A DNA stretch of 64,000 bases from Raja brachyura (lineage: Eukaryota): positions 37,882,001-37,946,000 of the forward strand of contig OY740790.1 of the NCBI GenBank assembly GCA_963514005.1. Direction: 5' to 3'. Each line of letters begins with the position of its first letter. Position 1 is the stretch's first letter. The notes under the pieces were generated by a model. The model did not search any database and had not been told where the DNA came from. It was given only the letters and a program-made list of their open reading frames with translations. Positions 2,036-54,275 of this stretch are shown here, piece after piece. Position numbers and translations under genes: made by a program.

Positions 2036-2440
2036 GGCTCAGCGGGACAAGCAGCATCGCCTGAGATGAATTGGTGACGTTTCGCGTCGAAACCCCTCAG
2101 ACTAGAGTCAGTGGAAATGGGAAACTAGAGACAGAGACGGCGATGTAGAGAGATAGAGAACACATGAATGAAAGACATGCACAAAAGTAATTATAATAAC
2201 GCCATTGTTATTTCCTTTATCATCGTTACTTTTTAGCAAATCCTTCATTCATTAGTTCTATATCACTCTGGATCACGGTCAACATCACTCGTTTCCCTTT
2301 CCCCTGACTAGTCTGAAGAGGGGTCTCGACCCGAAACGTCACCCATTCCTTCTCTCCTAAGATGCTGCCTGTCCCGCTGAGTTACTCTAGCATTTGTGCC
2401 TATCTTCGGTTTAAACCAGCATCTGCAGTTCCTCCCTACA
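2036..2440. mobile_element. Penelope-like pseudo-LTR pair in inverted orientation
   Basis: 2036-2190 is the diverged reverse complement of ~2225-2380 (e.g. gaatgaaagacatgcacaaaagtaa vs ttactttttagcaaatccttcattc); the + arm carries ctgaagaggggtctcgacccgaaacgtc and gatgctgcctgtcccgctgagttact. Confidence 0.75.
2311..2342 (+). ncRNA. Minimal type-I hammerhead-ribozyme-like motif in a Penelope pLTR
   Basis: CTGAAGA 2313-2319, stem II GGGT-ctcg-ACCC, GAAA, then C-G-TC with putative cleavage after C2340; stem I only 2 bp. Confidence 0.5.
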
Positions 2441-3245
2441 CATTTCGTCCTGCATGCTTATACCTCCGATTTCTAATTGGAGGCATATTTCGGTTTTGTG
2501 AGACTCTTGTTGGTTCTTTGTGCCTTTTAGTTTCATTGAATCGTGGGACTATACCATAATATCCAGAAGTACCCACATATGCTCATTATTGTTGATGAAG
2601 ACACGAACATGATGGAATCAACCTAACTGGTCCATCGAAATAGGCCGATAAGTAATGTAATGTAACTGAATGTAACGGAGCATATTTGTAGTGGATCAGA
2701 AAGGTCACAAACTCTACAAACAAATATGGAATATGAAGGAAACTGCAAAATAACAGTTTACTCTCCATGCCAGTAACTTATCTTCATGCAGATGTACAGT
2801 GTCGTTTTTGTGGAGAGAGATGCCACACTCCATAGTAATCACTCCTAGGCTAAACTCCTCGTGTACTTTGTTCTTAGCAATGCCAAATAACAGTAAACGA
2901 AACTGGCGTTCATCTCGTTAACTAAATTAAACGTGAATTCATGTGCCCCCCTTCGTGGCCTGCAGCCTGAATACGCGTTACTACCAGCGAAATGCATCCG
3001 AATACAATGTTTCTTGTGGCAAACCAATCTTTACCCCACCACCCCCACCCCCACCCCCACACTAGTGTTTGTAAATTGACCCCAACTGTCGTTGTCATCT
3101 AAATTGGTCATCATTACAATGAACACGTCTTATGTGATAAAGTGAATGTAAGGCAAACCAACTTTCTTCGTAAAAACTGACACTTAATTTAGCGTTTACC
3201 CTTCTTTGCCTCCCATACGTTTTCTTCTCCCCCCCGACTCCCGCC

Positions 3246-3281
<36 letters not shown>

Positions 3282-3305
3282 AACTAACTAACACACACAC
3301 ACACA
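3246..3305 (+). repeat. Compound (CT)n-(CTAA)n-(CA)n microsatellite
   Basis: Directly visible. Confidence 0.92.
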
Positions 3306-3569
3306 TGCAAAAGTTTTAAGTTGCAGTTAACATGTGTCAAAATCGTATCTGTTCTGACTAGTGGTAAGTCCTCAGATTTCAGTCACACTGGCAACAGAAG
3401 AAGTCTGCGCATGTTGCTGTTTTTTTGAAGTAGACAATGACAGGACTGTATATATAAACCTGTATATATAATTTCAGAACTGTGGAGAGAAAACAACCCG
3501 TTTAACTTTTTTTTTAACGAATACAATGTTTACCATGGAACTTTGCGTTTATACTGAATTTGTACTGCG

Positions 3570-3780
3570 TTCATAGTGAGTTCACCGATAGAACGTGTAA
3601 CAGTACAGCACTGGAATAGGCCCTTCGGCCAAGATGTCTGTGTCGAACTCGATGCCAAGAAAAAAAAAATCTGTTCCGTCTACACATGATCCATCTCTCT
3701 CCAATCCCTGCGTCTAAACGCCTCTTAAACACCACTCTCATATCTCCCTCCACCATGACCCCTGGCAGCGCATTCCAGGC
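3570..3780 (-). mobile_element. CR1 3'-end fragment
   Basis: acagcactggaataggcccttcggcc...ctaaacgcctcttaaa...cctggcagcgcattccagg, similar to the CR1 3' UTR. Confidence 0.6.
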
Positions 3781-3822
3781 CGGACCTTGTCGGGAAGCTT
3801 CATTTTAGTGGAATTTGGAGCA

Positions 3823-3918
3823 ATCTGAAGAAGGGTCTCGACCCGAAACGTCGCCTATCTCCTTCACTCCTTAGATGCTGCTGCACCCGCTGAGTTTCTC
3901 CAGCTTTTTGTGTAACCC
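3823..3918 (+). mobile_element. Penelope-like pLTR copy (second subfamily) with intact hammerhead-like core
   Basis: CTGAAGA 3825-3831, agggtctcgaccc, gaaacgtc to 3852, then gcctatctccttc...gatgctgctgcacccgctgagtttctccagc. Confidence 0.75.
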
Positions 3919-4039: not shown

Positions 4040-4197
4040 TGTGTAAGAAGGAACTGCAGATACGGGTTTACACCGAATATAGACACAAAATGCTGGAGTA
4101 ACTCAGCGGGTCAGGCAACAACTCTGGAGGAATGGAATTCCTTTCCTCCAGAAACGCTGCCCGACCCGCTGAGTTATTCCAGCATCTTATGTTTATC
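4040..4197. mobile_element. Fold-back Penelope pLTR fragments
   Basis: atgctggagtaactcagcgggtcaggca...ctggagg and cctccag...ctgcccgacccgctgagttattccagcat are inverted about ~4135. Confidence 0.7.
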
Positions 4198-4327: not shown

Positions 4328-4456
4328 TGTGTAGGAAGGAACTGATGCTGGTTTAAGGCGAAGAGAAGGGGCGTCGATACGAAACGTCACCCATTCCATT
4401 TCTCCAGAGATGTTGCCTGTCCCGCTGAGTTACTCCAACTTTTTGTGTCCATCTTC
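4328..4456. mobile_element. Penelope pLTR fragment with short inverted head
   Basis: gtgtaggaaggaactgatgctgg (minus-strand end) then cgaaacgtcacccattcc...cccgctgagttactccaac (plus). Confidence 0.65.
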
Positions 4457-7400
4457 CGCGTAAAATAGATCTATGCTTTTGAGCACAGAGTACGTACTCC
4501 GCCCTCAGATACTGCTGAGGCCAGCGGTTTCAGAACAGCTTGGTATTAGTCGCTGACTCAAATTGTCACATTCCCACTCAGCCACACATTCATTCATGAA
4601 GGGTGGCATCCACTCATTCAAATTCATGTCCACACTTTCACGCTGCAAATATACACCTTCATACTATATAGCCACTCAAGTGGCAATCATTAATACACAC
4701 TGAAAGCCACTTCCATTTACAGACGACTTAATTTCAAAGATTTTTTTCACGAATTCGGGCGTGTACATTTTCCAAAAACTCATGCACTTAGACACACGAG
4801 GACGCGCACCAGCGGACAGGCCGACGCAAACTCACGCGGGCGCGCCCCCATTGCCTACCCAAGCAACGGTCCAAGCTTTCTCTGGCTCCCACACGTACAC
4901 ATCACATTTTCTCTCTTGTACACTCTCAAACACACAGGCGTAAACATGCCTTTCTTTCTTTCGCGCACACAATCCCCCGTATACCACCACAAACACTGCC
5001 TCACACATCAGCACACATTCTTTTCACGTTCATGTAAACACGCACATGCACACAATACACGCACGTTCACAAGTTTAAAAAAGAAACTACTCCTCTCCCC
5101 AGTCTCCCACACCAGGCTTAGTCCCGCATCATTCCTGTAATGTGCAGTACTGCGAATTTGTCTCTGCCTCTTAGGGGCGCTCTGGCTCTCAAATTAAAAA
5201 AAATCCGAACCTCTTCACTGTTTTTATTACCGCACTATCATGTTAATGGACACGCGGATCTCTACCTGTAAGTCTATCTTCTTAGGTCGGAAATGGGGCA
5301 CAACTGGAAAAAAGCTAAAATTATATATATTATTATATAACCAAGCTATGCAACATAAAACAAATCTCTTATCAATGCCCCCACAATTACAAATGCAATA
5401 CTTTACTCTCAATAGCCTGCAAAGAAAAAAATACAATAGGACAACTTACTAAAATGCTGAACCCAAATATGAAACCAGCTCTCTGTTCTAGTCAAATATA
5501 ATGGGTTTATCCAATTCCTCCATTGCAGGAAACTAAAATTATAACTACAAATTACAAAATATCAAAATACATCAACATTTCAAAAATTACCAATAAACCG
5601 GCCATCCATACTCTCGGTGGTCGGCGGTTTTATGTATCAACAGAATATATCAGATATATACCAGATGAAATTCTAAATTTTAGATATTTCTGGATAGGTC
5701 TAGTATATACCAGCATTTATGAGTTATTATTTAACTTACCCATACTCTCTCTTTGAAAATAGTACATGAATTCGTTAATTCGGATAGATTTTCATATGCA
5801 ATCTGTATACAGCAATCAATGCGGGCAATTCAGCCTAATACCTGTTTATGCTCCTATTCAAGATGATTTGCGACTTGATTTACCCCCACACAATTAAAAA
5901 GCCATATTGTCGTATGGCAAGAGTTCTTTGACCTCACTGCATCTGTGGTGTTAACAAGTGCGTCTACTTTGGTTTATAATAATTCGCTTTTAAGATTGAT
6001 TGCAGAAACAACATTATACCATTATGAATTGAATTATGTAATATTTCAGGTATGAAAAAATATCAGAAGTTATTGGATCTTCAATGTGATAAACTTGTGA
6101 GAATAGCTGACGCGTACCTATTTGTGCATGGGGGAGGGGGGCATATATATAATATCAACAGTGACGCTATTACGCAAATTTAAATTACAAGACGCAGGTT
6201 TGTATTTGAATATATTCGAGACAGCGTGCACAACTTTCCATTTGGATTTTAATGTGCACATTTTTACCGGCAAAAGCGTGGATAGTGGCGTTTAAATGGC
6301 ATTCAAAAGATGATGAAATCAGATCAATAAGAGCAACGTAACAAATGGCACCAACTATATTTTACAAAAAAAATACATTCTGGTAAAAGCATCCTATGCT
6401 CTGTCTTCTAAAACATTTCTAAACTAAAGAACACTTTCATTTCAGTAAAATAGAATGCTTTTTTCCCCACAAAGAAATATAATGCATCAGATATTGTTAA
6501 AATGGATATTGAAAAACTACCTACAAAAATGATCCACCTGGGATATCAAAATACTGAAGAAAACGTAAAAATGGAAACCGTTCAAATTTTCCACGATTTA
6601 AATAATACCAGAACTTGTATTTTCTGTTTTTTTTTTAAATTTAAGTATGGTCAAGAATAATTGTCCTGAGATTGAACCAGGTGTATTACAGATTATTCCA
6701 CGAAAGCTATTGTATCTATGTAAATAAAATACAACATTAGCATAAAATTAAACATTTTTAAATTATGTGTTCAAATAAATATCTATTAGATTGTAAATAA
6801 AGTATTGCATGTTGGTATCCAGCACATAAAACCTTTTTAATAATTAATAATAGGAGCAGAAGATTTTTATTTTTATATTTGCCGCAAGGAAATACTGTTA
6901 AACATTATCTTGGAGTAATGACCTGCAACCTACACTTTCAAGTGCTCCCAAATTTTCCCCAAGTAACTGGAAGCTAAATATAATCTACAATATACTGTAG
7001 TTAAATAATATTCACTGCAGACCTGTGTAACCGAGCTCTCACACTGGTTGCTCAGTTAATTATAATAATCGAGATGTTTATGAAAAATAATTTATACATT
7101 GCATTGTGCAATATTTAAGCAACAAACGGGATTTTTAAAAATAAAATGTATTACTGGACATCGTGGCCTGAAAGTTCCTCAACAATATTGGATGTTGGTG
7201 TTTCGCAGTTTTAATTTGATACTTTTTTGCTGCTACCTGCTCGCTAGTCTTTTATTTTGATAGTTTGTGTTCAGGGTTTGATATAATCATTCGCGATCGT
7301 TTTTTTTCCAACTGTAGCTAGTTTGAATCTATTATTATTTACTGACATTTGATTGGGAGTCTAATGGTAACAATCCTGCTAGTTCTTTACTGGAATAGTT

Positions 7401-14110: not shown

Positions 14111-16199
14111 GATACATAATGAACTTTATTTCAATTATCATTTTAATAGCGATATTCTAAATTTGAATGCAAAATATTTAGGGATATTTTAAAGTATATT
14201 TAATAATGTTTCAGCCTGATATTTAATAGCAAATGTCTATTTTTTTAATTCCAATTTGCGTTCTTGTTCCAGTTTGCGTCCATGTAGATAATGTCAATTA
14301 TTGGGCCAAGATCGGGCTGTTAGAAAGCGCTGAGCTTGGCAAATTTCCCCCGTCGCTTGCTTGCTGCAAGATCAGGCAAAAAATAAATGTTGCGCGCTCG
14401 CTATGTCGAGACGTGTGATTTAGTCTCAAAACCATTATCTTCAAACGGTCAGCCGAGACGTGAACTTGAACCGACATGATAGGCAGATCATTCTACCAAT
14501 TGAAATTTTCATTAACACCCTCGCGCTGCGCTGCGCCAATCGGTGCGTTCTAGCTGGAGTTTCCGCTATCAAGTTTGGTTTATTTGCAATAGGATACTTT
14601 GGAAGGGTTTGTTGGGAACTGTAGTTCAATGTGTACAGTGCTAAAGCTGGATCAATGAATTCACTAAGGACGAGCTGTGTAAGGTTATAGACCATATTTC
14701 ATTTTCATTAAACATAAGATAGTACGTGTCCAGGTTTCCCACCGTGTAGCCCAAAACACACGTGCAATATATTTTTTTACATAAAATAATCAATTTAGCA
14801 AAAGTGTTTTTCCCTCATGAAATTCTCTTAAATGAGATTAGAACAAATCACGAAATAAATAACTTGCACCGTATTTTAATTGTACATAACGTTTGCAATT
14901 ATACATAATTTGCATGAATATTATGTTGCCCATTTGCTTTGGCATTGCATGGCGACTTTTAAATGGTCATTAGTTTTCAATTGGGTTATGTGTAAAGTAC
15001 CAGATCCATAGTTTTGATAGGCAAATAAGACAGTTGGTAGCTTCTCTTGCCTTCGGAAGAAGGGGGCTGTTTGAATAGGGGCAGTGGAAATCATGGTAAT
15101 GTTTGGATCAAAGCTGCTGCAACGTTGCACATTTTCAGATGCAATTATTTTCTAAGGTGTTAAAGGATTTTAATGCGACCATAGCCACAGAGATATCCGC
15201 AGCAAGTGAACTAAAGGATATGGATGATGGGCGGGGAATATTCCGTGTAGTGGTTTCCCTTTAAATCGCTGTGTAATTTGAATTGACTTGTATATGTTTT
15301 CTATGATAGCCAATCCAAGTGCAGAAATGGCGTGTGTTATGACTTTCTCTTTGCATTCCCATCATCTTCTTGATATTACAATGAAAGGCTTTGTCCATGC
15401 GTTTTCTGCATTGCTGAGGAGCATGCACATTCCATTCTACTGACAATCATAACTCGGCTTTACATTATCTCCTTAACATTCTACGAATACACTATTTTCA
15501 CCAACGTCGAGTATTGAATTTCTAAGTGTAGTTAGAATGAAACCTACGTGCACTCATGTAATTTGTAACATGGAACTTTAAATATTTAAAGATAAATTTC
15601 CTTTAAGATAATGTCTTGAAAATGAACAAAATTAACCAATATGCTTAACCTGCCATTAAGTAGAAACTACACCAATACTAACCAAATTAACCAGTTCGCA
15701 CGTCTTCAATCCCACTATTACCAAGATGCGTACGTTTATATTTGAGAATAATTGAACAAACACGTGCTACTGGAAAATAATTCATGCAACGTTTCACCGT
15801 TATTGCTACATTGCTAACACACTGGAAAGTTTAATGGATAACAAGGGTTGTGGTTGCAACATGTTGGAATATTTTGCATTGTGATGAGGTCCTAACCTTC
15901 CACCCATATGTTTTCACTCCCCTGCATTTCAGTTCTGGTTTCGATTTGTAATTTTTAATTCAGAGCTGCAACAAATCTCGTGATAATTTCTTCAAAGTGC
16001 GAGGTACCCTACTCACTTTTGATCAGTTAAACACACACACCTTCAACCCAATTGCACATTAAGACTTGCACACTTCAGAGCATGTCTATTTGTTTAGAAA
16101 TATGGGCTCATTAACATAAATTAATATATCTTTCACAATCTACGGTAATGGAAATTGTGGCGATGTGGTACACAGCCTTAGACATTATTTTTAAAGTGG

Positions 16200-16369
16200 A
16201 CAGACACAAAATACTGGAGTAACTCAGCATGACAGGCAGCACCTCTGGATAGAAGGAATGGGTGACGTTCTATCCTTCTACCCGGAGATGCTGCCTGGCC
16301 CGCTGAGTTACTCTAGCATTTTGTGCATGTTTTCGGTGTAACCCAACATCTGCAGTTCCTTCCTACACA
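16200..16369. mobile_element. Fold-back Penelope pLTR fragments at the edge of the NFIA promoter
   Basis: ctggagtaactcagcatgacaggcagca...gaaggaatgggtgacg inverted against tccttcta...gatgctgcctggcccgctgagttactctagc. Confidence 0.7.
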
Positions 16370-17453: not shown

Positions 17454-17537
17454 ATGGAGAAGCGAGCTGGCTTCAGTTCGAGACTGAAATGTGAAAGCCG
17501 GCTTTTCCTCTCACCACCACCAGCACCGCCACAATAA
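17454..17537 (+). other. Upstream ORF (27 aa, MEKRAGFSSRLKCESRLFLSPPPAPPQ) whose TAA overlaps the NFIA ATG
   Basis: aggATGg at 17454, open to TAA 17535-17537; NFIA ATG is 17537-17539. Presence in the mRNA depends on the unknown TSS. Confidence 0.5.
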
Positions 17538-17563
17538 TGTACTCTCCGCTCTGTCTCACCCAG
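17537..17563 (+). CDS. NFIA: Nuclear factor I A, coding part of exon 1 (MYSPLCLTQ)
   Basis: ATG TAC TCT CCG CTC TGT CTC ACC CAG followed by donor gtagga at 17564; phase 0, joins exon 2 as MYSPLCLTQ|[11 protein letters not shown], the NFIA N-terminus (NFIB has MMYSPICLTQ, NFIX MYSPYCLTQ, NFIC MYSSPLCLTQ). Confidence 0.95.
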
Positions 17564-23087: not shown

Positions 23088-23675
<588 letters not shown>

Positions 23676-31575: not shown

Positions 31576-32790
31576 CATAGAACCATAGAAACTTAGAAAA
31601 TAGGTGCAGGAGGTGGCCATTCGGCCCTTCGAGCCAGCACCGCCATTCATTGTGAGCATGGCTCATCGTCCCCAATCAATAACCTGTGCCTGTTTTCTCC
31701 CAATATCCCTTGATTCCACTAGCCCCTAGAGCTCGATCTAACTCTCTCTTCAATCCATCCAGTGATTTGGCCTCCATTGCTCTCTGTGGCAGGGAATTCC
31801 ACAAATTCACAACTCTCTGGGTGAAAATATTTTTTTCTCACCTCAATCTTAAATGACCTCCCCTTTATTCTAAGACTGTGGCCCCTGGTTCTGGACTCGC
31901 CCAACATTGGGAACATTTTCCCTGCATCTAGCTTGCCCAGTCCTTTCATAATTTTATATGTTTCATAAGAACCCCTCTCATACTTCTAAAATCCAGTGAA
32001 TACAAGCCTAGTCTTTTCAATCTTTCCTCATATGACAGTCCCACCATCCCAGGGATCAATCTCGTGAACCTACACTGCACTGCCTCAATCCCAAGGATGT
32101 CCTTTCTCAAATTAGGAGACCAAAACTGTACACAATACTCCAGATGTGGTCTCACCAGAGCCCTGTACAACTGTAGAAGAACCTCTCTACTCCTATACTG
32201 AAATCCTCTTGTTATGAAGGTCAACATTCCATTCGCTTTCTTCACTGCCTGCTGTACCTGCACACCAACTTTCAGTGACCGGTGTACAAGGATGCCCAGG
32301 TCTCATTGTACCTCCCCCTTACCTAACCTAACCCCATTGAGATAATAATCTGCCCCCTTGTTTTTGCCTCCAAAGTGGATAACCTCACATTTATCTATAT
32401 TATATTGCATCTGCCACGCATCTGCCCACTCACTCAACCTGTGCAGTTCACCCTGCAACCTCCTAACATCCTCTTCACAGTTCACACTGCCACCCAGCTT
32501 TGTGTCATCCACAAACTTGCTAGTGTTGCTCCTAATTCCCTCTTCCAAATCATTAATATATATGGTAAACAGTTGCGGCCCCAACACCGAGCCTTGCGAC
32601 ACTCCACTCACCACAGCCTGCCATTCTGAAAAGGACCCGTTCACTCCTACTCTTTGCTTCCTGTCTGCCAACCAATTTTCTATCCACGTCAACACCCTAC
32701 CCGCAATACCATGTGCTCTAATTTTAGTCACAAGTCTCCCATGCGGGACCTTATCAAAGGCTTTCTGAAAGTCTAGATACACTACATCCT
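31576..32790 (-). mobile_element. 5'-truncated CR1-clade LINE (RT domain, 3' UTR, 8-bp repeat tail)
   Basis: ORFs 32303-32782, 31946-32263 and 31719-31949 give YLDFQKAFDKVPH, GVSQGSVLGPQLF, KFVDDTKLG, RPHLEYCVQFWSP; tail catagaaccatagaaac = (TTTCTATG)n-like on the minus strand. Confidence 0.92.
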
Positions 32791-36180: not shown

Positions 36181-38709
36181 AAATATGACAAAATATAAGA
36201 ATGAACTCTGAAATCCAATCAAAAAACCCAAAATAGTTTTTTTTCTCTTTCGTCAATACTGCTTTGACATACAGAGACTAATATTCCTGATAATAACCAC
36301 TGCGCCAACACCTAAACTTCACATTTAAATGAAAGATTGTAATACACTGACTAAAACCAATAATGAGAATGTTGTCCGAAAGATTTCTGATTTATCTTGC
36401 ACAGTAGATTGATCTATTGTATCTATTATTCATTATAATTTAATATTGCAGAAAATTGTGATTGCTGTTGCTAAACTGACATAAAACCCATTACTTTTAG
36501 AGTTGTTAGTTTTTGGCTTGATGAGAAAATGCATATGGCCAGGCTCAGTAATTGATAGCAAGTAACTGCTTAGATATTGTTCATTATTTTTGCGTTATCA
36601 TAGCAGTTTGAGATTTGTCCAAATGCACAATAAATATTTAGAACAAATTAATATTTCAACAAGATATAAAGGCCATGTGCATTGGTAAGCTTGTTAAAGT
36701 GTGAAGTAGCACATATCTCCATAATTTTAATACAGAAGAATATTTTATTTTTATAATGAATACATTCCTTGGAGAATGCCCCCAAAATAAGTTAAAGATT
36801 ACATTCAAGCATCATAAAATTTGGTTGTACAGAAACATCACTGTGTTAAGATTTAGATTAAAATGTGCTTAAAATGTCAATCAGTCAAAGTTCAACATAA
36901 GAAAATGATTGTTTCCCACGTACATTTACAAAGTTCATGTCTGCAAGCACCACACTGGTGTTGTACTGGAACACCATTTCAGACATTTCTTTAGTAAATG
37001 TGTTATTGATCCCTCACCTGGTGATCAGCTGAAGGCTTGCTTTCATCTGACTTGTCGAACTATCTGGGAAGAACACGAAAGATGAGCTTTTATTTAGCAT
37101 TATTATAACTAGATTTATATTGAAATACCAACATTTTTAGCCATTTAGAGAAATCTCAATTGGTTGGTTCCAAAGAAGAAAAGTGCTGACAGTTTATTTT
37201 TTGAGACATTGGGAATAAAGCCCTTATTTAATATGTTATCTTCATTAACCCCTAATGAGCAGCAGAGATATTTGTACAGTATAGAAGAGTATAGAAAGAA
37301 ATCATCAGCCAGTGAAAGGTTAAGTAAACCCATGTGTACAGTACTGATTTAAATACAGTTGGAATTACTTGGCACTGGAAAGAATGTTCCCATTGATTGG
37401 CATCGATTGAATGACTTCAAATCTACCCACAAGACGACTCTTTAGAACAGCTTTGGATTGTTTCTATGGTAACTGCTCTTATCCAAGCATTGACATTATC
37501 TTTGGGTCTGGAAGGGTAAAGAGAAAACCGATACCAATCGAGGAAAATGGGGTGGTGGTGGGTAGTCGTGGGGTGCGGGGAGGCAAAGAGCGGAGGGTTT
37601 TTGTTATTTATTCGTTACATGGAAACTAATTGTTCGACATTTGCTATTTTGAAAGAAAGATGCTTGGAGAGGGGAAAATGCATAAAATAATTTTTCATTA
37701 GTTGATGAAATTAGCAAATGAATTTTTTTTTGCAATGATTAAGAATAAAGATAAATTTGCAGTAAAGTATAATGAACATTTTTTGCAAGATCCTCATTGG
37801 TGGTGTGTAATATGGATCACCAAGCAGCGATAGATCTTGGCAAAAAAGATAAAACGTCTGTACCCTAGGTGTAAATATAAGATATTAAAAGTGAGTTGTT
37901 AAGAGTACGAAGCTGCTCTGTAGTTATCCCAGTTCTTATTAATTATGTAATACACAATGGATACAAAAATTCAACAGTTGTATCTACTCAATTCACATGC
38001 TGTACCTCAATTAATGTCTGATAGTGGACCAAACATAATATTCAACTTATGCCATCACCTCTTCATTGCAGGATTCAGCTGTGCTTTTCTGCTGGAAGTC
38101 AGAATTGGCTGTGTTGTCACATTCAGATATATTTTTATATATCCGATGAGAATTGCTGGCCAATTCAATATGCACAGTGTCTGGTTGACTGAAATGCTAT
38201 TGGTGATTCCAAAATGCACATATCTGTCCATGGAGTATAATAAAATATCTGGATTTGATAGCATTGAATATCTGTAAAATACGTTCTTTCATGTAATTGG
38301 GCTTGGGATATATACATCCTTAATTTTCTAATATATACTTAGTCCATCCTTATTTAATGTCACCTATTGCCAGAATGGTCTCTGTGATGGTTGAGGTATG
38401 TAGAATAATTCATTTACTGATATCAATCACTTCCTTCCAGCTTCTTCTAGGCAGTAAGATAGGAAAATAAATTCTGAATTTTAGTGAACTTGCCTGTGAA
38501 TAATATTGATTTACGTAAAATGATTTGAATGTATATATTGTTTGAGAAAATCATCTTTATATCATGAATAGAATCAGTAATATTGTTTTATTGAAGCTTC
38601 TTAATTGTAATAATAAGCATTTGCAAGACAGCAAGCCAATTATTTTCCCATGAATTTAATGCCTTGTCACAAGGGGCATGTCACACACGGCAGGTACTTA
38701 AAGGACATA

Positions 38710-40315
38710 CAGTACCCTCCCTAATCTTTGGGACAAAGACCCATCATTTATTTATTTGCCTCTGTACTCCACAATTTGAGATTTGTAATAGAAAAAAATC
38801 ACATGTCGTTAAAGTGCATTGCTAGATTTTTTTAAAGGGTAATTTTATACATTTGACCATGTACAAATTACAGCTGTGTTTTGTACCTAGTCCCACCATT
38901 TCAGGGCACCATAATGTTTGGGACACATGGCTTCACAGGCGTTTGTAATTGTTCAGGTGCATTTAATTGCCTCCTTAATGCAGGTATAAGAGAGCTCTCA
39001 GCTCCCAGTCTTTCCTCCTTGCTGTTTATCAACATGAGGACCAATGTTGTGCCAATGAAAGTCAAAGAAGGCATTATGAGACTGAGAAACATGAATAAAA
39101 CTGTTAGAGATATCAGCCAAACCTTAGGTTTACCAAAATCAACTGTTTGGAACATCATAAAGAAGAAAGCAAGCACTGATGAGCTTACTAATCACAAAGG
39201 GACTGGCAGACCAAGGAAGACCTCCACAGCTGATGACAGATGAATTCTCTTTATAATATACAAAAACTGCCAGTCTGACAGAGCAGAAACACTCTTCAGG
39301 AGTCTGGTGTCGATTTGTCAATGACCACTATCCACAGAAGACTTCATGAACAGAAATAGAGAGGCTACACCGCAAGGTGCAAACCACTGGTTAGCTGCAA
39401 AATGAGGATGGCCGGATTACAGTTTGCCAAGAAGTACTTCAAAGAGCAACCACAGTTCTGGAAAAAGGTCTTGTGGACAGTTGAGGTGAAGATTAACATA
39501 TCAGAGTGATGGCGAGAGCAAAGTATGGAGGAGAGAAGGAATTGCCCAAGATCCAAAGCATACCACCTCATCTGTGAAACACAGTGGTGGGGGGTGTTAT
39601 GGCCTAGGCATGTATGGCTGCTGAGGTGGTATGCTCAGTTGTATCATCAATCTTCATTAATGACACAACTGCAGATGGTAGTAGAATTCTGAAGTGTATA
39701 GATACATATCTGCTCAAGTTCAAACAAATGCCTCAAAACTCATTGGCCGGCGGTTCATTCCACAGCAAGAAAATGATCCCAAACATACTGCTAAAACATC
39801 AAAGGAGTTTTTCAAAGCAAAAAATTGTCAATTCTTGAGTGGCGGTCGATCACCCGATCTGAACCCTATTGAGCATGCGTTTTATATGCTGAAGAGAAAT
39901 TTGAAGGGGATTAGCCCCCAAAACTAGCATAAGCTAAAGATGGCTGCAATACAGGCCTGGCAGAGCATCAGCAGAGAAGACACCCAGCAACTGGTTATGT
40001 CCATGACTCGCAGACTTCAAGCAGTCATTGTATGCAAAGGATATGCAACAAAATACTAAACATGACTACTTTCATTTACATGACATTGCTGTGTCCCAAA
40101 CATTATGGTGCCTAAAATGGGGGGACTATGTATAAACACTGCTGTAATTTCTACACAGTGAAAACAAAATGTATAAAAATACCCTTAAATAAAATCTGAC
40201 AATGTGCACTTTAACCACATGTGATTTTTTTTTCTATTACATATCTCAAATTGTGGGGTACAGAGGGAAATAAACACATTATGGGCCTTTGTCCCAAACA
40301 TTATGGAGGGCACTG
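38710..40315 (+). mobile_element. Full-length Tc1 DNA transposon (IR/DR type), 1606 bp
   Basis: TA|CAGT...ACTG|TA ends; ~220-bp TIRs with outer and inner direct repeats (taat.tttgggaca ~38723 and ~38912, mirrored ~40091 and ~40290). Confidence 0.93.
39034..40059 (+). pseudogene. Tc1 transposase pseudogene
   Basis: HTH (RDISQTLGLPKSTVWNIIKK), GRPRKT, QQENDPKHT, SPDLNPIEH and terminal TKY*; interrupted by stops and frameshifts. Confidence 0.9.
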
Positions 40316-43212
40316 TATAATTAACTATAATGATTTATATCTGTATCGTAGATTTGAATGTGTCATGTGCATCTGGGATGACATTTAAAACATTTTGATT
40401 GTGTTTTTGGGAAATGGTCTTCTCCATACTTACTAAGCATTGCACATTAAAATTTTAAAATCTGAAATGAAATGCATTTAAAGTTAAACCCCACTGTATC
40501 TAACTTAATTTGCAGCGCTTTTCGGGGGAAAAAAAAGAAGTGGGATTTGGATTCATGTCATTGACATTTCTACTCCCTTGGCAAACTTCATTTTTATTTC
40601 TTCTGCAGTATCGAGGGTTATATTTCTCTTGCACTTTTCTGGGGGAGGCATTCATACAAGCCGAAGCTAGTTAAACCTTAATGGGTTGGGATTTTTTCCC
40701 CCATTTCTTAGAAGCTTCAGCTAACATCTGAGAATAGACTCTTTGTATTCAGATGCCCTTCTAACAAGACGCTCATTGTCTTAAGCCTTTGCCAGGAGAA
40801 CGCGAGCCACTGCACAGCCTTTATTGTGCAGACTCTGATTGTATTTGAACTTGATGAGGGCTGCATTTGAATTGTAGTCAGACAGTTCATCTGTAGTTTT
40901 GCATAGGCTGAGAACTAGCCAGAAATTGCCATGTTTGTCTAATTACCTCTTTAGATAAGATGAGGTGGCGGGGAAATTGCAGGGAAGGGGTGGTGGGCGG
41001 AGGTTGTGGGGGTGAGGGTGAGTGTAATTGTTAATAGTTGGAAAGAAGATGATAGTGAGGAGGGAGACTTAATTGAACTTTATCGTATGGTATAACAAAC
41101 AATGTGACTGGATTACTATGGGAACTTATTGACTTATATTCTGATCAGAACCTTGCATCATAGAACAATGTGTAGCTGGAATGTGGAATACAGTATGGGG
41201 TATCTATTCTCCCATCATTTATTCCTCGAGCGATTCCTCTACCACTCCCCCCACCCCATGCAATTAAAAATATTAAGACCACATTGAATAAATATAGAAA
41301 ACATTTTACAAAATTCTTTGTTAATTTAATGAATGCAAATTGATAACATGCATATATTGGAGCTTGGCTGGTTGCAGGGTGTGCTGTGCAGTCTTTGAAT
41401 ATTATTTTAATCTCTCTGTTATCCGTGTACCCTAACATTTTGGCAAAATATCACCTCCTGTATGTGACATCAGTTGATATCCCAAGAAGAGTCAGCGGCA
41501 ATGGAACTGCTAGTACTTCTCATTCTTGTGTAGGACTCGGGGGCAGAGACATGACGGCCTGTATGAGGGACACAGAATGGTGGGGGAGATGAGATGAAGA
41601 GGGGAGATGGATGATCAACTTATTAAGGTTGCAGCAACAGTGTGTCATTCAGTTTTGATTAACTCCTTCAAGCCTCTTGATGTGGGTAAAGTGCCAGTGT
41701 TTTGTTCTTGTAAACTACCAGTAGCACATGAATTTGGAACTGCAAAGGACAATGCATTTGGTTTTAAATATGAAAACTTAACTTAAATTGGCACTGTATT
41801 TTCAAATAAAAATTGCTCCATCAATATAACTACCACTACCACAGACAGACTGACTATGCATTTTAAGTTGCGGTTACTGAATTTGAGCATAAATTGTCCA
41901 CTTGATTTGATTCTCTGTGTAATAATGTTATCAGTTTAAGATGTGACTGAGTATTCTACATTAAATAAATTACACTGAAATTTTACCTGCCATTCCATTG
42001 TCATAGTTCAATTCAAAATATAAGAAGCAATCATGAGGAAAGCTTAAAAATCTACATAAACAAAAATTAAGAATTATGTTTTTATATATAGAATTAAAAT
42101 ATTTTTGAAGCTTGCATTGAAAGTTAATTTATCATTATTGTTAAAAGCACACGTTATAGAAATCAAATAAAATCTTAGTTTCTCAAATGAACTTAATTTC
42201 ATCAAAGAAAGGGAGATATCCATAATTGTAAGCATTAGGAAAATGCCAATCCTAAGTTTAAATCAAAGAATCAAGCTGAGGCTTTTAGAGGCTCCATCTG
42301 TTAAGACAGGAGCAACATTGATTGTGAGGTGCTTTTTAACTTCTTGCAGTGAACGAAAACAGGATCATGATGCAGTCCGAATCCTGATTTGTTTAGCATT
42401 GTACGTGCTTAAAAAGCAGCACTTGGGCAGATGGAACTGCTAAATTCCTTGTCCTTTGATTTAGAGTTGGGCAGATACTTCTACATGTACAGCTTGATGG
42501 TTGCAGTCAGAACAATCAATACACTGTAAAACACAATTAACAGAAGAAATGTAAAAGAGCCTCTACATGGTCGGTAATGCACAACACGCGGAGACTTGGA
42601 CCTGAAAAGATGCCTTGGCATCCCACAATGCAACGCAGTGCCCGCAGCTGGTGGCATTTGGGAAGAGAGCATTGGTACATTGTGTTTCATGTACTCCAAA
42701 AGACTTCAAAATTAAGGATTACTTTACGGATTTGCAAAAGGCTGAATGAGCAACACTCAAGTCCATTATTAGCATTAACTCTTTCTCACCTACGGTTAGG
42801 ATTTATTCTTAAAATTGAGATTACCAGAAATAATTTCATACATTCCCACTAGAATTTTCAGCATTATTGTTAAAGATTTCCCATGAATTTAGTTTCTGAA
42901 TTTACCCAAGGATATCTGAAAACATGTAATGTTTCACTGTTTGGAGAGCAAAAAAATAATTTTGGAGAAATGAAGTGACTGATTTGGCATTGATCCTCTT
43001 CCATTTATGCTACTTTCTGATTTAAGAATACAATAATAATAATAATGTGTCAGTAGGGAAATAGGCCCATCATGGCTGCTGCTTTATTTATTAAGACTAT
43101 AGATAATCTTTTACCTCAAAGCCATGTTCCTACACTAACCTCCTATTAGTTGATTCCATTAATAAATAAAACAATATACATTGATGGCGACACAGTGGAG
43201 CAATGGGTAGTG

Positions 43213-44144
43213 CAGAGTTTATTGTCATGTGTCCCTGATAGGACAATGAAATTCTTTCTTTGCATAGCACAACAGAACATAGTAGGCATTGACTACAATT
43301 ATATACGTAAATACACACATGAATTAATAAATTAATAAAGTGCAAATAACAAGATGGAGGGATATCAATGTTCAGAGTTTTGTCCGAGCCAAGTTTAATA
43401 GCCTGATGGCTGTGGGGAAGTAGCTATTCCTGAACCGGGTCGTTGCAGTCCTCAGGCTCCTGTACCTTCTACCCGAAGGTAGCAGGGAGATGAGTGCGTG
43501 GCCAGGGTGGTGGGGGTCCTTGATGATGCTGCGAGCCTTTTTGAGGCAGCGACTGTGGTAGATCCCCTCGATGGAAGGAAGGTCAGAGCCGATGATGGAC
43601 TGGGCAGTGTTTACTACTTTTTGTAGTCTTTTCCTCTCCAGGGCACTCAAGTTGCCGAACGATGCAACCGGTCAGCAAGCTCTCTACTGTGCACCTGTAG
43701 AAGTTAGAGAGAGTCCTCCTTGACAGACCAACTCTCCGTAATTTTCTCAGGAAATAGATGAGCTTTCTTAATAATTGCATCTGTGTTCTCCGACCAGGAA
43801 AGATCTTCACAGATGTGCACGCCCACGAATTTGAAGCTCTTGACCCTTTCAACCATCGACCCGTTGATATACACAGGACTGTGGGTCCCCATCTTACTCC
43901 TTCCAAAGTCTACAATCAGTTCCTTGGTTTTGCTGGTTTTGAGCGCCAGGTTTTGTGTTGGCACCATATGAACAGTTGCTCGATCTCTCTTCTATACTCT
44001 GACTCATCCCCATCAGTGATACGTCCCACAACAGTGGTGTCGTCAGCGAACATGATGATGGAGTTCGCACTATGACCGGCTACGCAGTCATGAGTATAGA
44101 GTGAGTACAGCAGGGGGCTGAGCACGCAGCCTTGAGGTGCTCCC
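43213..44144 (-). mobile_element. 5'-truncated Rex1/Babar-type LINE
   Basis: GAPQGCVLSPLLYSLYTHDC, MFADDTTVVGRI, KTKELIVDF, NFYRCTVESLLTGCI, LLPSGRRYRS in frameshifted ORFs; AATAAA on the minus strand near 43220. Confidence 0.85.
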
Positions 44145-44360
44145 TCACCACTGAGTTTCGCCAGCATTTTTGTCCACCTCCTATCTTTCTGTTGTGTTTT
44201 AAGACACTGCATATAAGACACTGCTTTCAAGTTGATCTGTATCACTTTCAGTCTTTGATAACATTTTTAAACATTATTATCGGTTCCCTAAAGGAGACTT
44301 ATCCACCAGATCATCAATAATCCTTTCTCATTAAAATATTAAATCCAACATGGCCAACTT

Positions 44361-44613
44361 CAGCAACTCGTATTTCACTTGGGCAGCTTACACCCGAGCG
44401 GTATGAATATTGTCTTCTCTAACTTTGTAACTCTTGCTTTCCTACTTTCTCCATCTCCCCCTCCCTCCCCCCCTCTCCTTCCCAGTTCCCCGATCAGTCC
44501 GACTGTCCCTCTGATTACATTGTATCTCTATTTGTTTTGTTGTCACCTCATCTAGCTGACTACATTCTCCTTGATCTGCATTTAGTTTGATCTCTTCTAC
44601 TTTCTTATCTCCA
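44361..44613 (+). mobile_element. Penelope 3' fragment (end of GIY-YIG endonuclease ORF plus pyrimidine-rich 3' region)
   Basis: Translates QQLVFHLGSLHPSGMNIVFSNF, resembling the LG(S/T)LxPxG(L/M)N C-terminal motif of Penelope endonucleases. Confidence 0.6.
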
Positions 44614-44616
44614 TAA

Positions 44617-45255
44617 AGGGCCTATCCCACTGCGGGGCCATCATTTGTGAGTTTAAAAGAGTTTGTGCTCGACTCAAACTCGAAGCATGGTCGACACATG
44701 GTCCTAGGAGGTCTATGTAACTCTCCTTCATGCTCGAGAGAAGTTCCCGCATACTCGAGGCTTCAATTTGGTCGAGGAGTATTTTTCAACATGCTGAAAA
44801 TTGTTCGCGTGTAAAAATTGGTTGGCATGGAAAAAATCTATATATTTGTTTACTCGTAGGTTTAGTCGAAGTAGGTCGTAGTAGGACGGCATGTTATTCC
44901 TAGGTAATCAAATGCAATTGAAGGTAATCGAAGGTAGTCAAAGGGAATCAAAGGTAGTCTAAGGTAGTCGTATATAGTGTTAGTGTAGTCGAAAGTGGTT
45001 GTCTTCACTCTCCACTATTCGGTGTCCAATTTTCCCGAAGCTAGCCGAAGTCTTCAACATAGTCAAAGGAGATCGAAGGAGGTCTTCTACATAGTCGAAG
45101 GAGGTCTTCTACATATTCGTAGGAGGTTCTCTACATAGTCGAAGGAGGTCGTAGGCGGTGTTCTACTTCGGCGATACAACAAGACCATGACATTTTTTTA
45201 AACTCCTAAACTCTTCTAAACTCGCAAATTAGGTCCCCGCAGTGGGACAGGCCCT
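44617..45255. mobile_element. Non-autonomous PIF/Harbinger-type MITE (639 bp)
   Basis: TIRs AGGGCCTATCCCACTGCGGGG / CCCCGCAGTGGGACAGGCCCT extending ~45 bp imperfectly; flanked by TAA and TTA; internal tandem repeats. Confidence 0.8.
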
Positions 45256-45588
45256 TTACTCTTTCTTCCTGGTCACCGAATCTGTCTCTCTCCTTGGCCA
45301 CCTGCTTGCAATCTTGATACTCTATTTGAATCTGATGTTCTAACAACATGTCTCTGCTATCTCCAACACTTTCTACTTTAGTAACATCTTATTCTGCCTC
45401 TTTTCAGTCCCTTCTGCCTTATCATTATCATTACACAAATTTTACAATTCCACTTCCAGTAACCTTCCCATCTTACATGCTTCAAAACTCTTTCAAATCT
45501 CTTCGGTTTATACCTAACCTGCATGTTTTCATTCATTTTCAACATTTTCAACGAACCTATGCTCACTAACTTGGCTCATCAGAAGAAC

Positions 45589-45793
45589 TGTTAAAGAAGA
45601 AACTGCAGATGCTGGAGAATCGAGGGTTACACAAAAAGCTGGAGAAACTCAGCGGGTGCAGCAGCATCTAAGGAGCGAAGGAGATAGGCGACGCCTCGGA
45701 TCGAAGGGTCTCGACACGAGGCGTCGCCTATCTCCTTCGCTCCTTAGATGCTGCTGCACCCGCTGAGTTTCTCCAGCTTTTTGTGTAACCCTC
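45589..45793. mobile_element. Young Penelope pLTR fold-back insertion with 14-bp direct repeats
   Basis: Perfect 77-bp arms 45622-45698 and 45717-45793, 18-nt spacer; ctcatcagaagaac at 45575-45588 and 45791-45804. Confidence 0.85.
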
Positions 45794-47929: not shown

Positions 47930-48060
47930 TAGAAACAAGGAACCGGAGATGTTGATTTACCAAGGAAATACACAAAATGCTGGAGTAACTCAGCAGGTTA
48001 GGCAGCATCCCTGGAGAGCATGAATAGATGATATTTCAGGTCTGAACCTTTCTTCAGACC
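47930..48060 (-). mobile_element. Penelope pLTR copy (CpG-decayed)
   Basis: acacaaaatgctggagtaactcagcagg...ttcaggtctgaacctttcttcagac, reverse complement of the family consensus. Confidence 0.7.
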
Positions 48061-51000: not shown

Positions 51001-53619
51001 TCTCGAGACGTTGCTTTCTATTTTTCTAAAAGGGAGTTATTGAGCAGAAAATTGTACCATGACAACTAGAATAAATAATTTAAAAGACTTAAAACTCTGC
51101 ACTGTTTATACAGCAAGATGTTTTGGCACATAAGGAAAATATGTAAGGTAGATTGAGCAGAGGGGTGCTACCTAAATTATCCTTGCTGAGGTCACAACAG
51201 ATGTAGTGTATCATGCAAGTGTTTTCTCAGTATCAATATGCTGTTCTATTGTGGGTAATGCAGTGTAATCAGATCAATACAACATTCTTTTTATCTGCAA
51301 AAAAAAAAAAGTCCTGAATGGGGAGTCAAAATGCCCCTGGAGATGGGTTTTCCCAGTTGTCCACAACCCCCCCTCCTCTCGCTTTCTCACCCCCACCAAT
51401 GAAAACCGTGTTAGAAATTCAAGCCCTCAGCATAATTGCACTGGATTTTCAAAGAGGTGGCTTTGCATTGCTGGGTCTCTAGAAACTGAGAGAATACTAC
51501 TGTATGTGACTGGACTAATTGGTGAATTTGTCTAGTAAAATGCTCCACATCCCACAATAGGTGAGAATTCAGTCTGTCCTTCTTTTGGTTCTAAGTGAAC
51601 AATCACTTTTCTTCAGGCTAATTAAAGTGCTTGCAGATTAGTCGAGCAAAGACAAACTTGAGCCTACTTTTCATTGCAGGGATTGAGAGGAAATGTATAA
51701 ACGAGCCCTGCTAGTTGCGGATAGTGGTCTGTATAAGAATGTAATTAATTTTGAAAATTATTAAATGTCATAAAACTTAAATGTCTGTTTTTTTTGTGCT
51801 CTTAATTGGATGATTAATACTAGACTTTTTTCCCTGTGCACAGTCCCTCTTTCCAGATGGCAAATGGTAGGTCCCAACCCTCTTTGTACACAAAGAGGTC
51901 ATGGTTCAAAGTCAAAGATACAGAGATACCACAATAATCAATCATTGGAACTTGCCTGCTTGCTGTGACCAGCCAGGCAAAATTGAGTCTCTTGTTAGCA
52001 ACAAAACTACAGGAGGGCTTGTGTGTTTTTCCTTGCACGTTTTAAAGAGAAAGTGAGAAGGGGGACCCCCTTCTACATTTTACAGTAATAATTTATAGTT
52101 GAAAATTGTGAGGAGAGCATTTGGTTTCCATCACTATACAGAATGGCAGTTAAAATGACATTCTTTGCAAGTCTTCAGTAGATAGCTTCTCATTTCACTC
52201 TGCGCAGCGTGCTGTTACTCTGAGCTGCTTTACTAATTAAATTCAATTGCTATCCATTAGACTGATGGAATGAGAAGAATCTACAATGCAGCTGACTCAG
52301 TGCAGGTCTAAGTGACCAGATACAAGCTTCACTGTACTGCTACCAATTCATTTTGATACAGCTATCGTCATGCAGTACTCTTGCCCTAGGCTTCAAAACA
52401 AAAATAGCGGCAATTCCGATACCTTTTACTCTTTATACCGCATAATTTAGTAATTCTTTGATGCATAAACAATTTTATGCCCTATGCATGAAATCTCTTA
52501 TCATTATTAAATCTATTTTTCCGCACAGGTTATTGTAAGTGGTTTTTTTTTCAGAATAACTTTTGTTGATTTTATGGTGCTGTTCACCTCATTGGAGTTC
52601 ACTATGGGGTGACCTTCTCCATCCCATTCCTGTTCAAAGGTACAAATATACATAAAGACTATATAAATATAAATGAAGACCACATTTCCACACGAGAGCA
52701 GAAAATAATATCAGTGGGTGAGTGTTGGCAACTCTTGGAATTGCCCATTTGACCACCCAAGATTGATTTTGACAAAGATATGGTGAGAAATGGCCTGCCT
52801 ATGGCAATGGATGTTCATTAGAGCAGGAAGCAGTTCTGATGAAAGGTGATCAACCTGAAACGCTGACCCTTTCTTTTCTCACAGTTGTGATCTGGGCTGC
52901 CAAATATTGAAAGCTGGGTGATATAGTAAAATTATTGCTATTACAAGATAGTTTGGATTTAAAACCTATTTCAAGTGAACCTGTCTTGTCTCCACAAGAG
53001 CGGAATAACCTCCAGGCACATCATTAATGCCAGAAGGAAGAGGCCAGTAGGAAGGTTAATAACTTGAACTTGGATCCCAAGAGATGGCTGCAGTGCCAGG
53101 AATTTTCAGCAGCCTCATGATAAGAATCTGGCCTCCAATAACAACTTTTCTCTTTACCCCTGCATTTTCTGCAGGTTCCCCTTGCAATACACAAGTCCAT
53201 TGCTTCGCCTTAAGGGAATTATTCAAAAACATTTCACAATGCTTCTGTTTGCTGCACTGCAGTCTCGTATTTAGAGACCCTCATTTCCTCACCATGCAGA
53301 GTGTTTAAACTCTACTGGTGTATTTTCTAAAACGTCAGGCAGGAGTTGGTAAAATAAGAATGCTGAACCCATCTGTATACCCTATCCCCTCTGGGGGATG
53401 ATATGGTGATTAGGGGTAAATTCATCGGCATGGTATGTGGGAATGCTGGCAAAAAATGGCACAAAGGGTTTCCTTGGATTTATCCACTTTTAGATATGTA
53501 CCATCTCCTAGCAATCACATATACATGACTACAAAATTTCAGAAGTCAAGCCAATCAATTATAGAGATAGGCAATATAGAGCAGGAGAAGCAGTTTAAAA
53601 AAAACAACACATTTTAAAA

Positions 53620-54275
53620 ACAGTGCTGGAGTAACTCAGCAGGTCAGGCAGCATCTGTGGAGAATATGGATAGGTGATGTTTTGGGTCGGGACCCTTCTT
53701 CAGACTGGTTCTGTGGTGGGGGGTGGGAGCAGAGAAAGCTGGAAGAGTTGAGGGGCAGGACAAAGGCTGGCAGGTAATAGGTTGATACAGCTGATGGAGC
53801 TCAGAGAACAGAGTTGAGCAATTTCCCTCTACTGACGTTCTCCTCCACCTGGCACAGCTTGTCCTCACACCCCACAAATTCTCCTTTGATTGCTCTCACT
53901 TTCTCCAAGTTAAAAAGTGTAGCCATGGGCACTTGCATGGGCCCCAGCTATTCCTACCTTTTTGTTGGTTACATTGATCAGTTCTTGTTCCAAATGTACA
54001 CTAGAACCATACCCTAACATTTTCTCTGCTGCTTTAATGACTGTAATGAGGCTGTCTCCTCAGGCTGCCTGCATCCTTTGCAAGAGGCAGGGTGGGAGGA
54101 AGTATAGTTCAGATAACTGTGGGAGTCGATAAGTTTGTAGTAGACGTCAGTCGATAGTCTGTCTCCTGTGATGGGGACAGAAAGATCAAGAAAGGGGAGA
54201 GAGGTGTCAGAGATGGTCCAAGTGAAATTGAGGGCAGTGTGTATGTTAAGGGTAACGTAATCAACTGGTTACATC
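53620..54275. mobile_element. Rearranged Penelope-like element: pLTR (-), RT fragment (+), RT C-terminal fragment (-)
   Basis: + strand ~53915-54000 reads VAMGTCMGPSYSYLFVGYIDQ; - strand 54071-54238 reads TALNFTWTISDTSLPFLDLSVPITGDRLSTDVYYKLIDSHSYLNYTSSHPASCK, both typical of Penelope RT; adjacent to a pLTR copy at 53620-53705. Confidence 0.8.

Follow-up and report, generated by a model that had tools for sequence, protein, structure and literature searches.

The most abundant dispersed repeat in the window, a stretch of 64,000 nucleotides of the Raja brachyura genome (contig OY740790.1), represents the terminal repeat (pLTR), together with the tail, of an EN+ Penelope-like element (PLE) with a reverse transcriptase (RT), a GIY-YIG domain, and a Neptune/Nematis-type linker. 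The repeat carries a minimal type I hammerhead motif. Combined with a copying mechanism read from the ends of the copies and with putative cleavage by the motif, this explanation has, in our estimate, a probability of about 0.8. The original prediction is supported in its overall reading: the Penelope link is borne out, and the motif fits the minimal type I hammerhead as described in the parts of PMC4209133 used here.

Hammerhead motif and copies in the window

Fully intact cores occur at only two places in the window, 2313 to 2340 and 3825 to 3852 (both +), exactly the positions that had been predicted. In the first, the hammerhead layout is confirmed throughout: the core heptamer (2313-2319) is followed by an extra purine (2320), stem II (2321-2324/2329-2332) with a loop of 4 nt, GAAA (2333-2336), and CGTC up to the predicted cut after 2340. 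The second copy is laid out identically, with the cut predicted after 3852. CUGANGA and GAAA boxes and U16-H17 are present, as are the extra nucleotide 9/10.1, G10.1-C11.1, and a palindromic 15.2-16.2. The loop II variants CUCG, CCCG, UCCG, and UUCG presumably all fall within the YNMG tetraloop class. For a strict hammerhead descriptor, 0.02 matches are expected per shuffled 64-kb window (50 Markov shuffles). An Rfam scan of the window returned four weak, unrelated matches and no hammerhead family; the motif went undetected there, with no matching family.

Metazoan minimal type I hammerheads are known from PLEs, and the extra purine is one of their conserved features (PMC4209133, main text). 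Because the core, the purine, G10.1-C11.1, and the ACGU palindrome all match that published motif, the purine, which had been entered as a caveat, is better regarded as a hallmark. A second caveat, a stem I of about 2 bp, is correct as to length, and a U-A/U-G exchange preserves the first pair of this helix; the short stem fits copies, and probably RNA, that start 3 nt before the core.

The claim that this family dominates the window holds, as it is the largest dispersed repeat there, with 15 profile matches at E ≤ 1e-3. The first intact core lies in the 3' end of a PLE (2211-2449, +; blastn matches to the ORF-linked loci L058, L060, and L240; profile match 1-133), which consists of about 100 nt of 3' UTR, a pLTR with the long tail (2310-2441), and about 8 nt of element body. 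It is the plus arm of a head-to-head insertion whose minus arm (2038-2197, -) has a short end and a damaged core. The second intact core belongs to a solo copy of the youngest subfamily (3824-3918, +; the class of about 3% divergence), which has a short end and starts 1 nt before the core. Further head-to-head pairs are found at 4041-4197 (4041-4138 minus, 4137-4197 plus; both arms without core), at 16195-16368 (without core), and at 45591-45790 (youngest subfamily, cores incomplete). At 4330-4468, a copy that lacks the first core bases (4364-4468, +) is accompanied by a short inverted piece. Copies on the minus strand include an older one with a mutated core (47937-48059), one with a mutated palindrome (55265-55367), and an old one without core (58437-58548). 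The CTGATGA variant noted at 52836 exists; it is a weak, degraded remnant of an older CTGATGA family (52835-52887, +; profile E = 0.047) in which the palindrome and UH are broken.

RT fragments had been reported to abut a copy at 53.6 to 54.3 kb. They are real, and they lie in two opposite orientations: a pLTR copy with some 3' UTR and a mutated core (53619-53738, -) adjoins a broken PLE RT fragment covering the motif B' to C region (53804-54059, +; tblastn E 2e-11 to 7e-10) and a fragment of a later RT region (54074-54259, -; tblastn E 3e-22). Pfam gave no match on these two short fragments.

Other mobile sequences were observed in the window. A short piece of PLE endonuclease lies at 44355-44423, and 51-nt inverted repeats surround a 22-nt tandem repeat at 44614-45258, possibly a MITE. 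Three stretches (31946-32788, 43372-44266, and 57174-57527, all -) resemble, by eye, other LINE-type RT fragments. Inverted repeats of 92 nt (38707-38798 and 40227-40318) flank a transposase-like frame (ORF 38857-39243), which we take to be probably a Tc1-type DNA transposon.

Identity of the element

With the window RT fragment at 54074-54259 as query, a first look gave 19,598 genome candidates, of which 150 were scored and 20 were chosen for long open frames. In 14 of these 20 RT-picked loci the repeat directly follows the RT ORF on the same strand, which establishes the predicted link to Penelope elements. In one locus (L041), RT is followed by GIY-YIG at 28.1 bits (Pfam cut-off 22.6), with RVT_1 at E = 1e-4, below its cut-off. 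The linker FPC-x4-C-x2-C is found in 11 of the 20 loci, a 12th regular-expression match being a different motif. In L240 and other loci, the pLTR runs into the element body and the start of the ORF, with a likely start codon about 165 nt after the core. Because the repeat follows the ORF in some loci and enters the body and ORF start in others, it is the pLTR plus tail of the element. The pLTR was seen before and after the ORF, but never both in one intact locus: none of the 40 element-bearing loci, 20 of which had been chosen for their 5' body, is a full-length intact element with two pLTRs, and no intact ORF was recovered among the examined loci, the copies being broken. The Neptune/Nematis likeness is one of type, suggested by linker and structure rather than by an RT phylogeny. 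Among named proteins, the closest relatives come from sharks, rays, and a skate.

Two observations were made alongside. In most of the loci L234 to L253, the likely start codon lies within AAGGTATGT, about 40 nt after the long tail; we assume that AAGGTATGT also reads as a splice donor consensus. Three proteins, isoforms named for ray or skate host genes (P0003, P0012, and P0044), carry long pieces of the protein of this PLE, either through exonisation or through annotation error.

A SINE, or a chance look-alike unrelated to Penelope elements, would agree with copies that are mostly short and solitary and with the failure of Rfam to find a hammerhead. The repeat is, however, linked to RT-GIY-YIG ORFs at both ends, and it has inverted pairs and a tail of the PLE type. 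We reject this candidate on the strength of the ORF linkage and find it scarcely credible.

Copy number

In 160 evenly placed 10-kb stretches of the genome (1.6 Mb), the profile matched 743 times, in 146 of the stretches; when the first 100 stretches (1 Mb) were reversed as a control, there were 0 matches, versus 465 without reversal. This corresponds to about 1.25 million fragments in the genome (bootstrap 1.12 to 1.40 million), or 4.4% of its DNA. An exact pattern of core and stem II is matched by 82,164 intact cores genome-wide (control, 0). The genome is indeed seeded with pLTRs carrying the hammerhead motif, as had been proposed from the window.

Ends of the copies

The 227 young copies that are not in pairs comprise 152 that extend to the core, 20 that start 1 to 4 nt inside it, 35 that start further in, 2 that start at the cut site, and 18 that start beyond it. 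Of the 152 core-reaching copies, 104 have no shared upstream sequence beyond that of a random control and 48 continue, mostly into the 3' UTR. Because starts pile up 0 to 8 nt before the core, frequently accompanied by an untemplated G, and not at the cut site, the templates were probably uncut RNA. In the first 1 Mb, starts at the cut site showed an apparent excess of 5; this was not repeated (6 of 743 in 1.6 Mb; 2 of the 227 young copies) and is not supported. Genome-wide, starts one before, at, and one after the cut site number 158, 399, and 583, counts that are confounded by small deletions.

The base preceding the first shared base, counted for 94 of 193 cores, is C in 73 cases and T in 6 (both templated), G in 12, and A in 3 (G over A, P = 0.005); with all own loci, the excess of G is weaker (14 versus 6, P = 0.017). 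An extra G is the usual mark of an RT copying a cap. TCAGT, we presume, resembles an initiator. From these DNA ends alone, we place the RNA start, by inference, about 3 nt upstream of the core, a position that would also account for the 2-bp stem I.

The main rival to this RNA start is a splice acceptor at the 5' wall of the copies. In that reading, the pyrimidine tract and YAG that precede the core would act as a 3' splice site, and the copies would derive from spliced RNA or stop at the junction. All 3' UTR variants seen end pyrimidine-rich and with AG, 1 nt before the core, and the end of the Drosophila virilis Penelope intron (PMC2377424) maps to the 5' end of helix I, according to the relevant parts of PMC4209133. 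However, the 104 copies without UTR have no common upstream exon, many copies retain the AG and a few bases before it, and the untemplated G better fits a free capped end. We consider the splice junction rather unlikely.

At the other side of the copies, 3' ends cluster near model positions 91 to 107 and 125 to 133. Head-to-head pairs account for 244 of the 743 copies (122 pairs, versus 10 tail-to-tail). Once 21 pairs with a shorter arm are excluded, 79 of 101 classifiable pairs combine a long and a short arm (expected, 50%; P = 4e-9). Such pairs agree with priming at two internal sites and with both DNA strands being extended, as in the anole element described below.

In the mechanism that we favor, the element RNA would begin roughly 3 nt upstream of the core. 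Host DNA would be cut by the RT-endonuclease, priming would be internal, at either of two sites about 100 or 130 nt further down, and copying would proceed to the RNA 5' end; the products would be copies of 100 to 135 bp beginning at the ribozyme. If both cut ends served for priming, head-to-head pairs with a long arm and a short arm would result. Tandem arrays would come from an RT that now and then re-primes immediately behind the ribozyme.

Constraint, decay, and the role of the motif

Subfamilies of 3 to 23% divergence, defined from downstream columns only among the 410 of 743 copies that span the region, all have one core and stem II in common. With CpG decay excluded, none of the 21 core and stem II columns is polymorphic, against 2 of the 4 columns of loop II and 17 of the 57 downstream columns (Fisher P = 0.004). 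At position 1.1, just after the cut site, a change from A to G preserves the pair with U2.1. The constraint is not unique to the ribozyme, because columns 45 to 60 are likewise well conserved (2 of 16 vary). Single copies show mismatches of 8.4% in the core and 8.6% in the flank, that is, neutral decay, and the catalytic G12 is lost in about one-third of copies via CpG decay. The test put forward with the original prediction, conservation among young copies, is therefore poorly aimed: the constraint is seen between master subfamilies and is not visible among single copies. The family is present in the contigs of four sequencing runs; in such contigs, in which depth favors the consensus, no variant letter reaches ≥5% inside the motif and 7 downstream places vary.

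Within the family, the covariation check found one-sided compensatory changes and no two-sided one among the copies analysed. One of 13 distant PLE loci from metagenomes (L232) has the same core and a two-sided change in stem II that still pairs. Candidate covariation in CTGATGA variants (142 and 1,871 matches, 100 of each listed) was rejected as mostly decay, inseparable from CpG loss. The A-T first stem II pair of the older CTGATGA family, seen among the 142 genome-wide matches (100 listed), is similarly confounded by CpG decay.

In folding models, stem II has a probability near zero in both window copies in context, and a hammerhead-like fold would cost 4 to 13 kcal/mol in both; monomers are therefore predicted to misfold. 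The motif might accordingly be a hammerhead by descent that has lost catalysis in this lineage and is retained as a promoter or protein-binding element at the RNA 5' end. This alternative is compatible with the inactive folds predicted by the models and with the lack of an excess of starts at the cut site. In vitro, the anole element still inserts when its ribozyme is mutated (PMC11167929, in the experiments relevant here), and 8 of 9 Xenopus dimers remained uncleaved (bioRxiv 2026.07.22.740005, in the part of that preprint on dimers). Against it, variation between subfamilies sits where a hammerhead tolerates it (loop II, 1.1, and H17 = C or U) and not in the core or stems, and the same source on the anole element reports that its ribozyme cleaves once protein is added (PMC11167929). 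We judge loss of catalysis to be unlikely. As far as can be judged from sequence, it is likely that the motif functions solely within the element's own transcript, in dimeric form and probably together with the protein that the element encodes, the scattered copies being probably inert and decaying.

Tandem arrays

Two motifs lie 2 to 14 nt apart at 723 places genome-wide (control, 0). With shorter anchors, in patterns that cover the junction only, there are 563 junctions at 8 to 12 nt and 335 at 15 to 19 nt (controls, 4 and 3); from these two counts, clustering of the junctions at the cut site was considered and rejected. Of 100 matches listed at 8 to 12 nt and inspected by eye, at least 72 end in NAGT before the second core. 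In those 72, N is C in 35, G in 30, A in 4, and T in 3; without 12 matches with T-run spacers, apparently another arrangement, the counts among the matches listed are C 29, G 30, A 3, and T 3. Arrays have a period of 30 to 47 nt. Spacers are unequal in the arrays at C2:140426403-140426514, C2:83264850-83264920, and C5:7710897-7710962, which plain DNA duplication would not give, and equal at C4:32263820-893, which it would. Similar tandem joints occur in contigs of 3 of 4 sequencing runs. No close tandems were found in the 1.6-Mb sample, and the two intact copies of the window, 1.5 kb apart, are not tandem.

The shared start point and the several hundred to a thousand tandem copies likely record copying of the front end of the RNA. 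A more specific reading, which we offer tentatively and hold to be somewhat less probable than its negation, is that the RT, on reaching a capped 5' end located 3 nt upstream of the hammerhead, runs off, appends an untemplated base, and can re-prime a few nt behind the hammerhead to copy it once more in a telomerase-like manner, so that arrays of 30 to 47 nt would arise in one insertion. If so, (i) about one thousand natural dimers or multimers would represent the cleavage-competent form and the seeds of retrozymes, and (ii) the million solo copies would be direct records of uncut 5' RNA ends.

Neighboring NFI gene

The window contains the first coding exon, a short one, of a nuclear factor I (NFI) gene (17537-17563, +) and an exon for its DNA-binding domain (23088-23618, +; Pfam PF10524 and PF03165), together forming a gene that we take to be NFIA-like. 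The original prediction had stressed that some copies lie beside a developmental gene. This nearness means little, because one fragment occurs per about 2 kb genome-wide and proximity to NFI is expected; within the window, no link between the intact copies and the NFI gene was found.

Dispersed copies could in principle be active ribozymes that cut host transcripts, such as that of NFI. The 82,164 intact cores and 723 close tandem junctions could supply dimer partners, and, of the 6 strong copies downstream of NFI exon 1, 5 lie antisense, a bias that selection against sense copies would produce. However, this strand bias rests on n = 6, copies decay neutrally with the loss of G12 described above, the intact window copies lie 14 to 15 kb before NFI exon 1 and 1.5 kb from each other, and monomers of this type did not cleave in the assays of PMC4209133 considered here. 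Cutting of host transcripts is very improbable.

Comparison with known systems

Hammerheads in vertebrate PLEs are already published for fishes, coelacanth, Xenopus, and reptiles. What this genome adds to the association is scale: over a million Penelope integration footprints, from whose DNA ends a mechanism can be read. Our literature search, with supplementary file 1 of PMC4209133 outside its coverage, found no paper on elasmobranch hammerhead ribozymes, nothing on a transcription start or initiator in a Penelope pLTR, and, by title, none on non-templated template jumps by PLEs. Cartilaginous fish do not appear in the main-text parts of PMC4209133 examined or in its supplementary file 2.

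The R. brachyura motif shares with the metazoan minimal hammerheads of PMC4209133, as its main text describes them, the core boxes, the extra 9/10.1 nucleotide, G10.1-C11.1, the palindromic 15.2-16.2, the location in the pLTR, and the occurrence mostly as dispersed single motifs. It differs in having a stem II of just 4 bp and a stem I of 2 bp; helix I is 4 to 5 bp in the published motifs and 2 bp in D. virilis. The 82,164 intact cores compare with about 9,000 in Xenopus tropicalis and about 4,000 in coelacanth, as given in the same source with different descriptors.

The element resembles Neptune/Nematis EN+ PLEs, in the relevant sections of Craig et al. 2021 (PMC8557442), in having an RT ahead of GIY-YIG, a CX2-5CxxC linker, strong truncation, an inverted copy at the 5' end, and a 30- to 40-bp tail confined to one end; those sections do not mention the sharp 5' wall at the ribozyme. 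PAc, a Poseidon element of Anolis carolinensis, likewise has two discrete 3' ends separated by about 30 nt, extends both DNA strands, and shows no sign of RNA ends at the cut site, according to the corresponding parts of Frangieh et al. 2024 (PMC11167929). The ORF of PAc starts in stem II, whereas in R. brachyura the likely start, about 165 nt past the core, lies beyond both clusters of 3' ends. Our footprints suggest a ribozyme located right at the beginning of the RNA and uncut in templates, in agreement with this one in vitro study.

Non-LTR retrozymes (bioRxiv 10.64898/2026.07.22.740005, in the sections drawn on here) also consist of tandem hammerhead units related to pLTRs. That preprint includes one chondrichthyan species, reports cleavage of 1 of 9 dimers, and proposes birth by local DNA amplification. 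Units in R. brachyura, at about 30 to 47 nt, fall below the 51 to 972 bp reported there, and some arrays have unequal spacers and untemplated bases, which point to RT jumps rather than to DNA duplication. These natural tandem hammerheads provide material with which to ask whether vertebrate PLE ribozymes cut at all.
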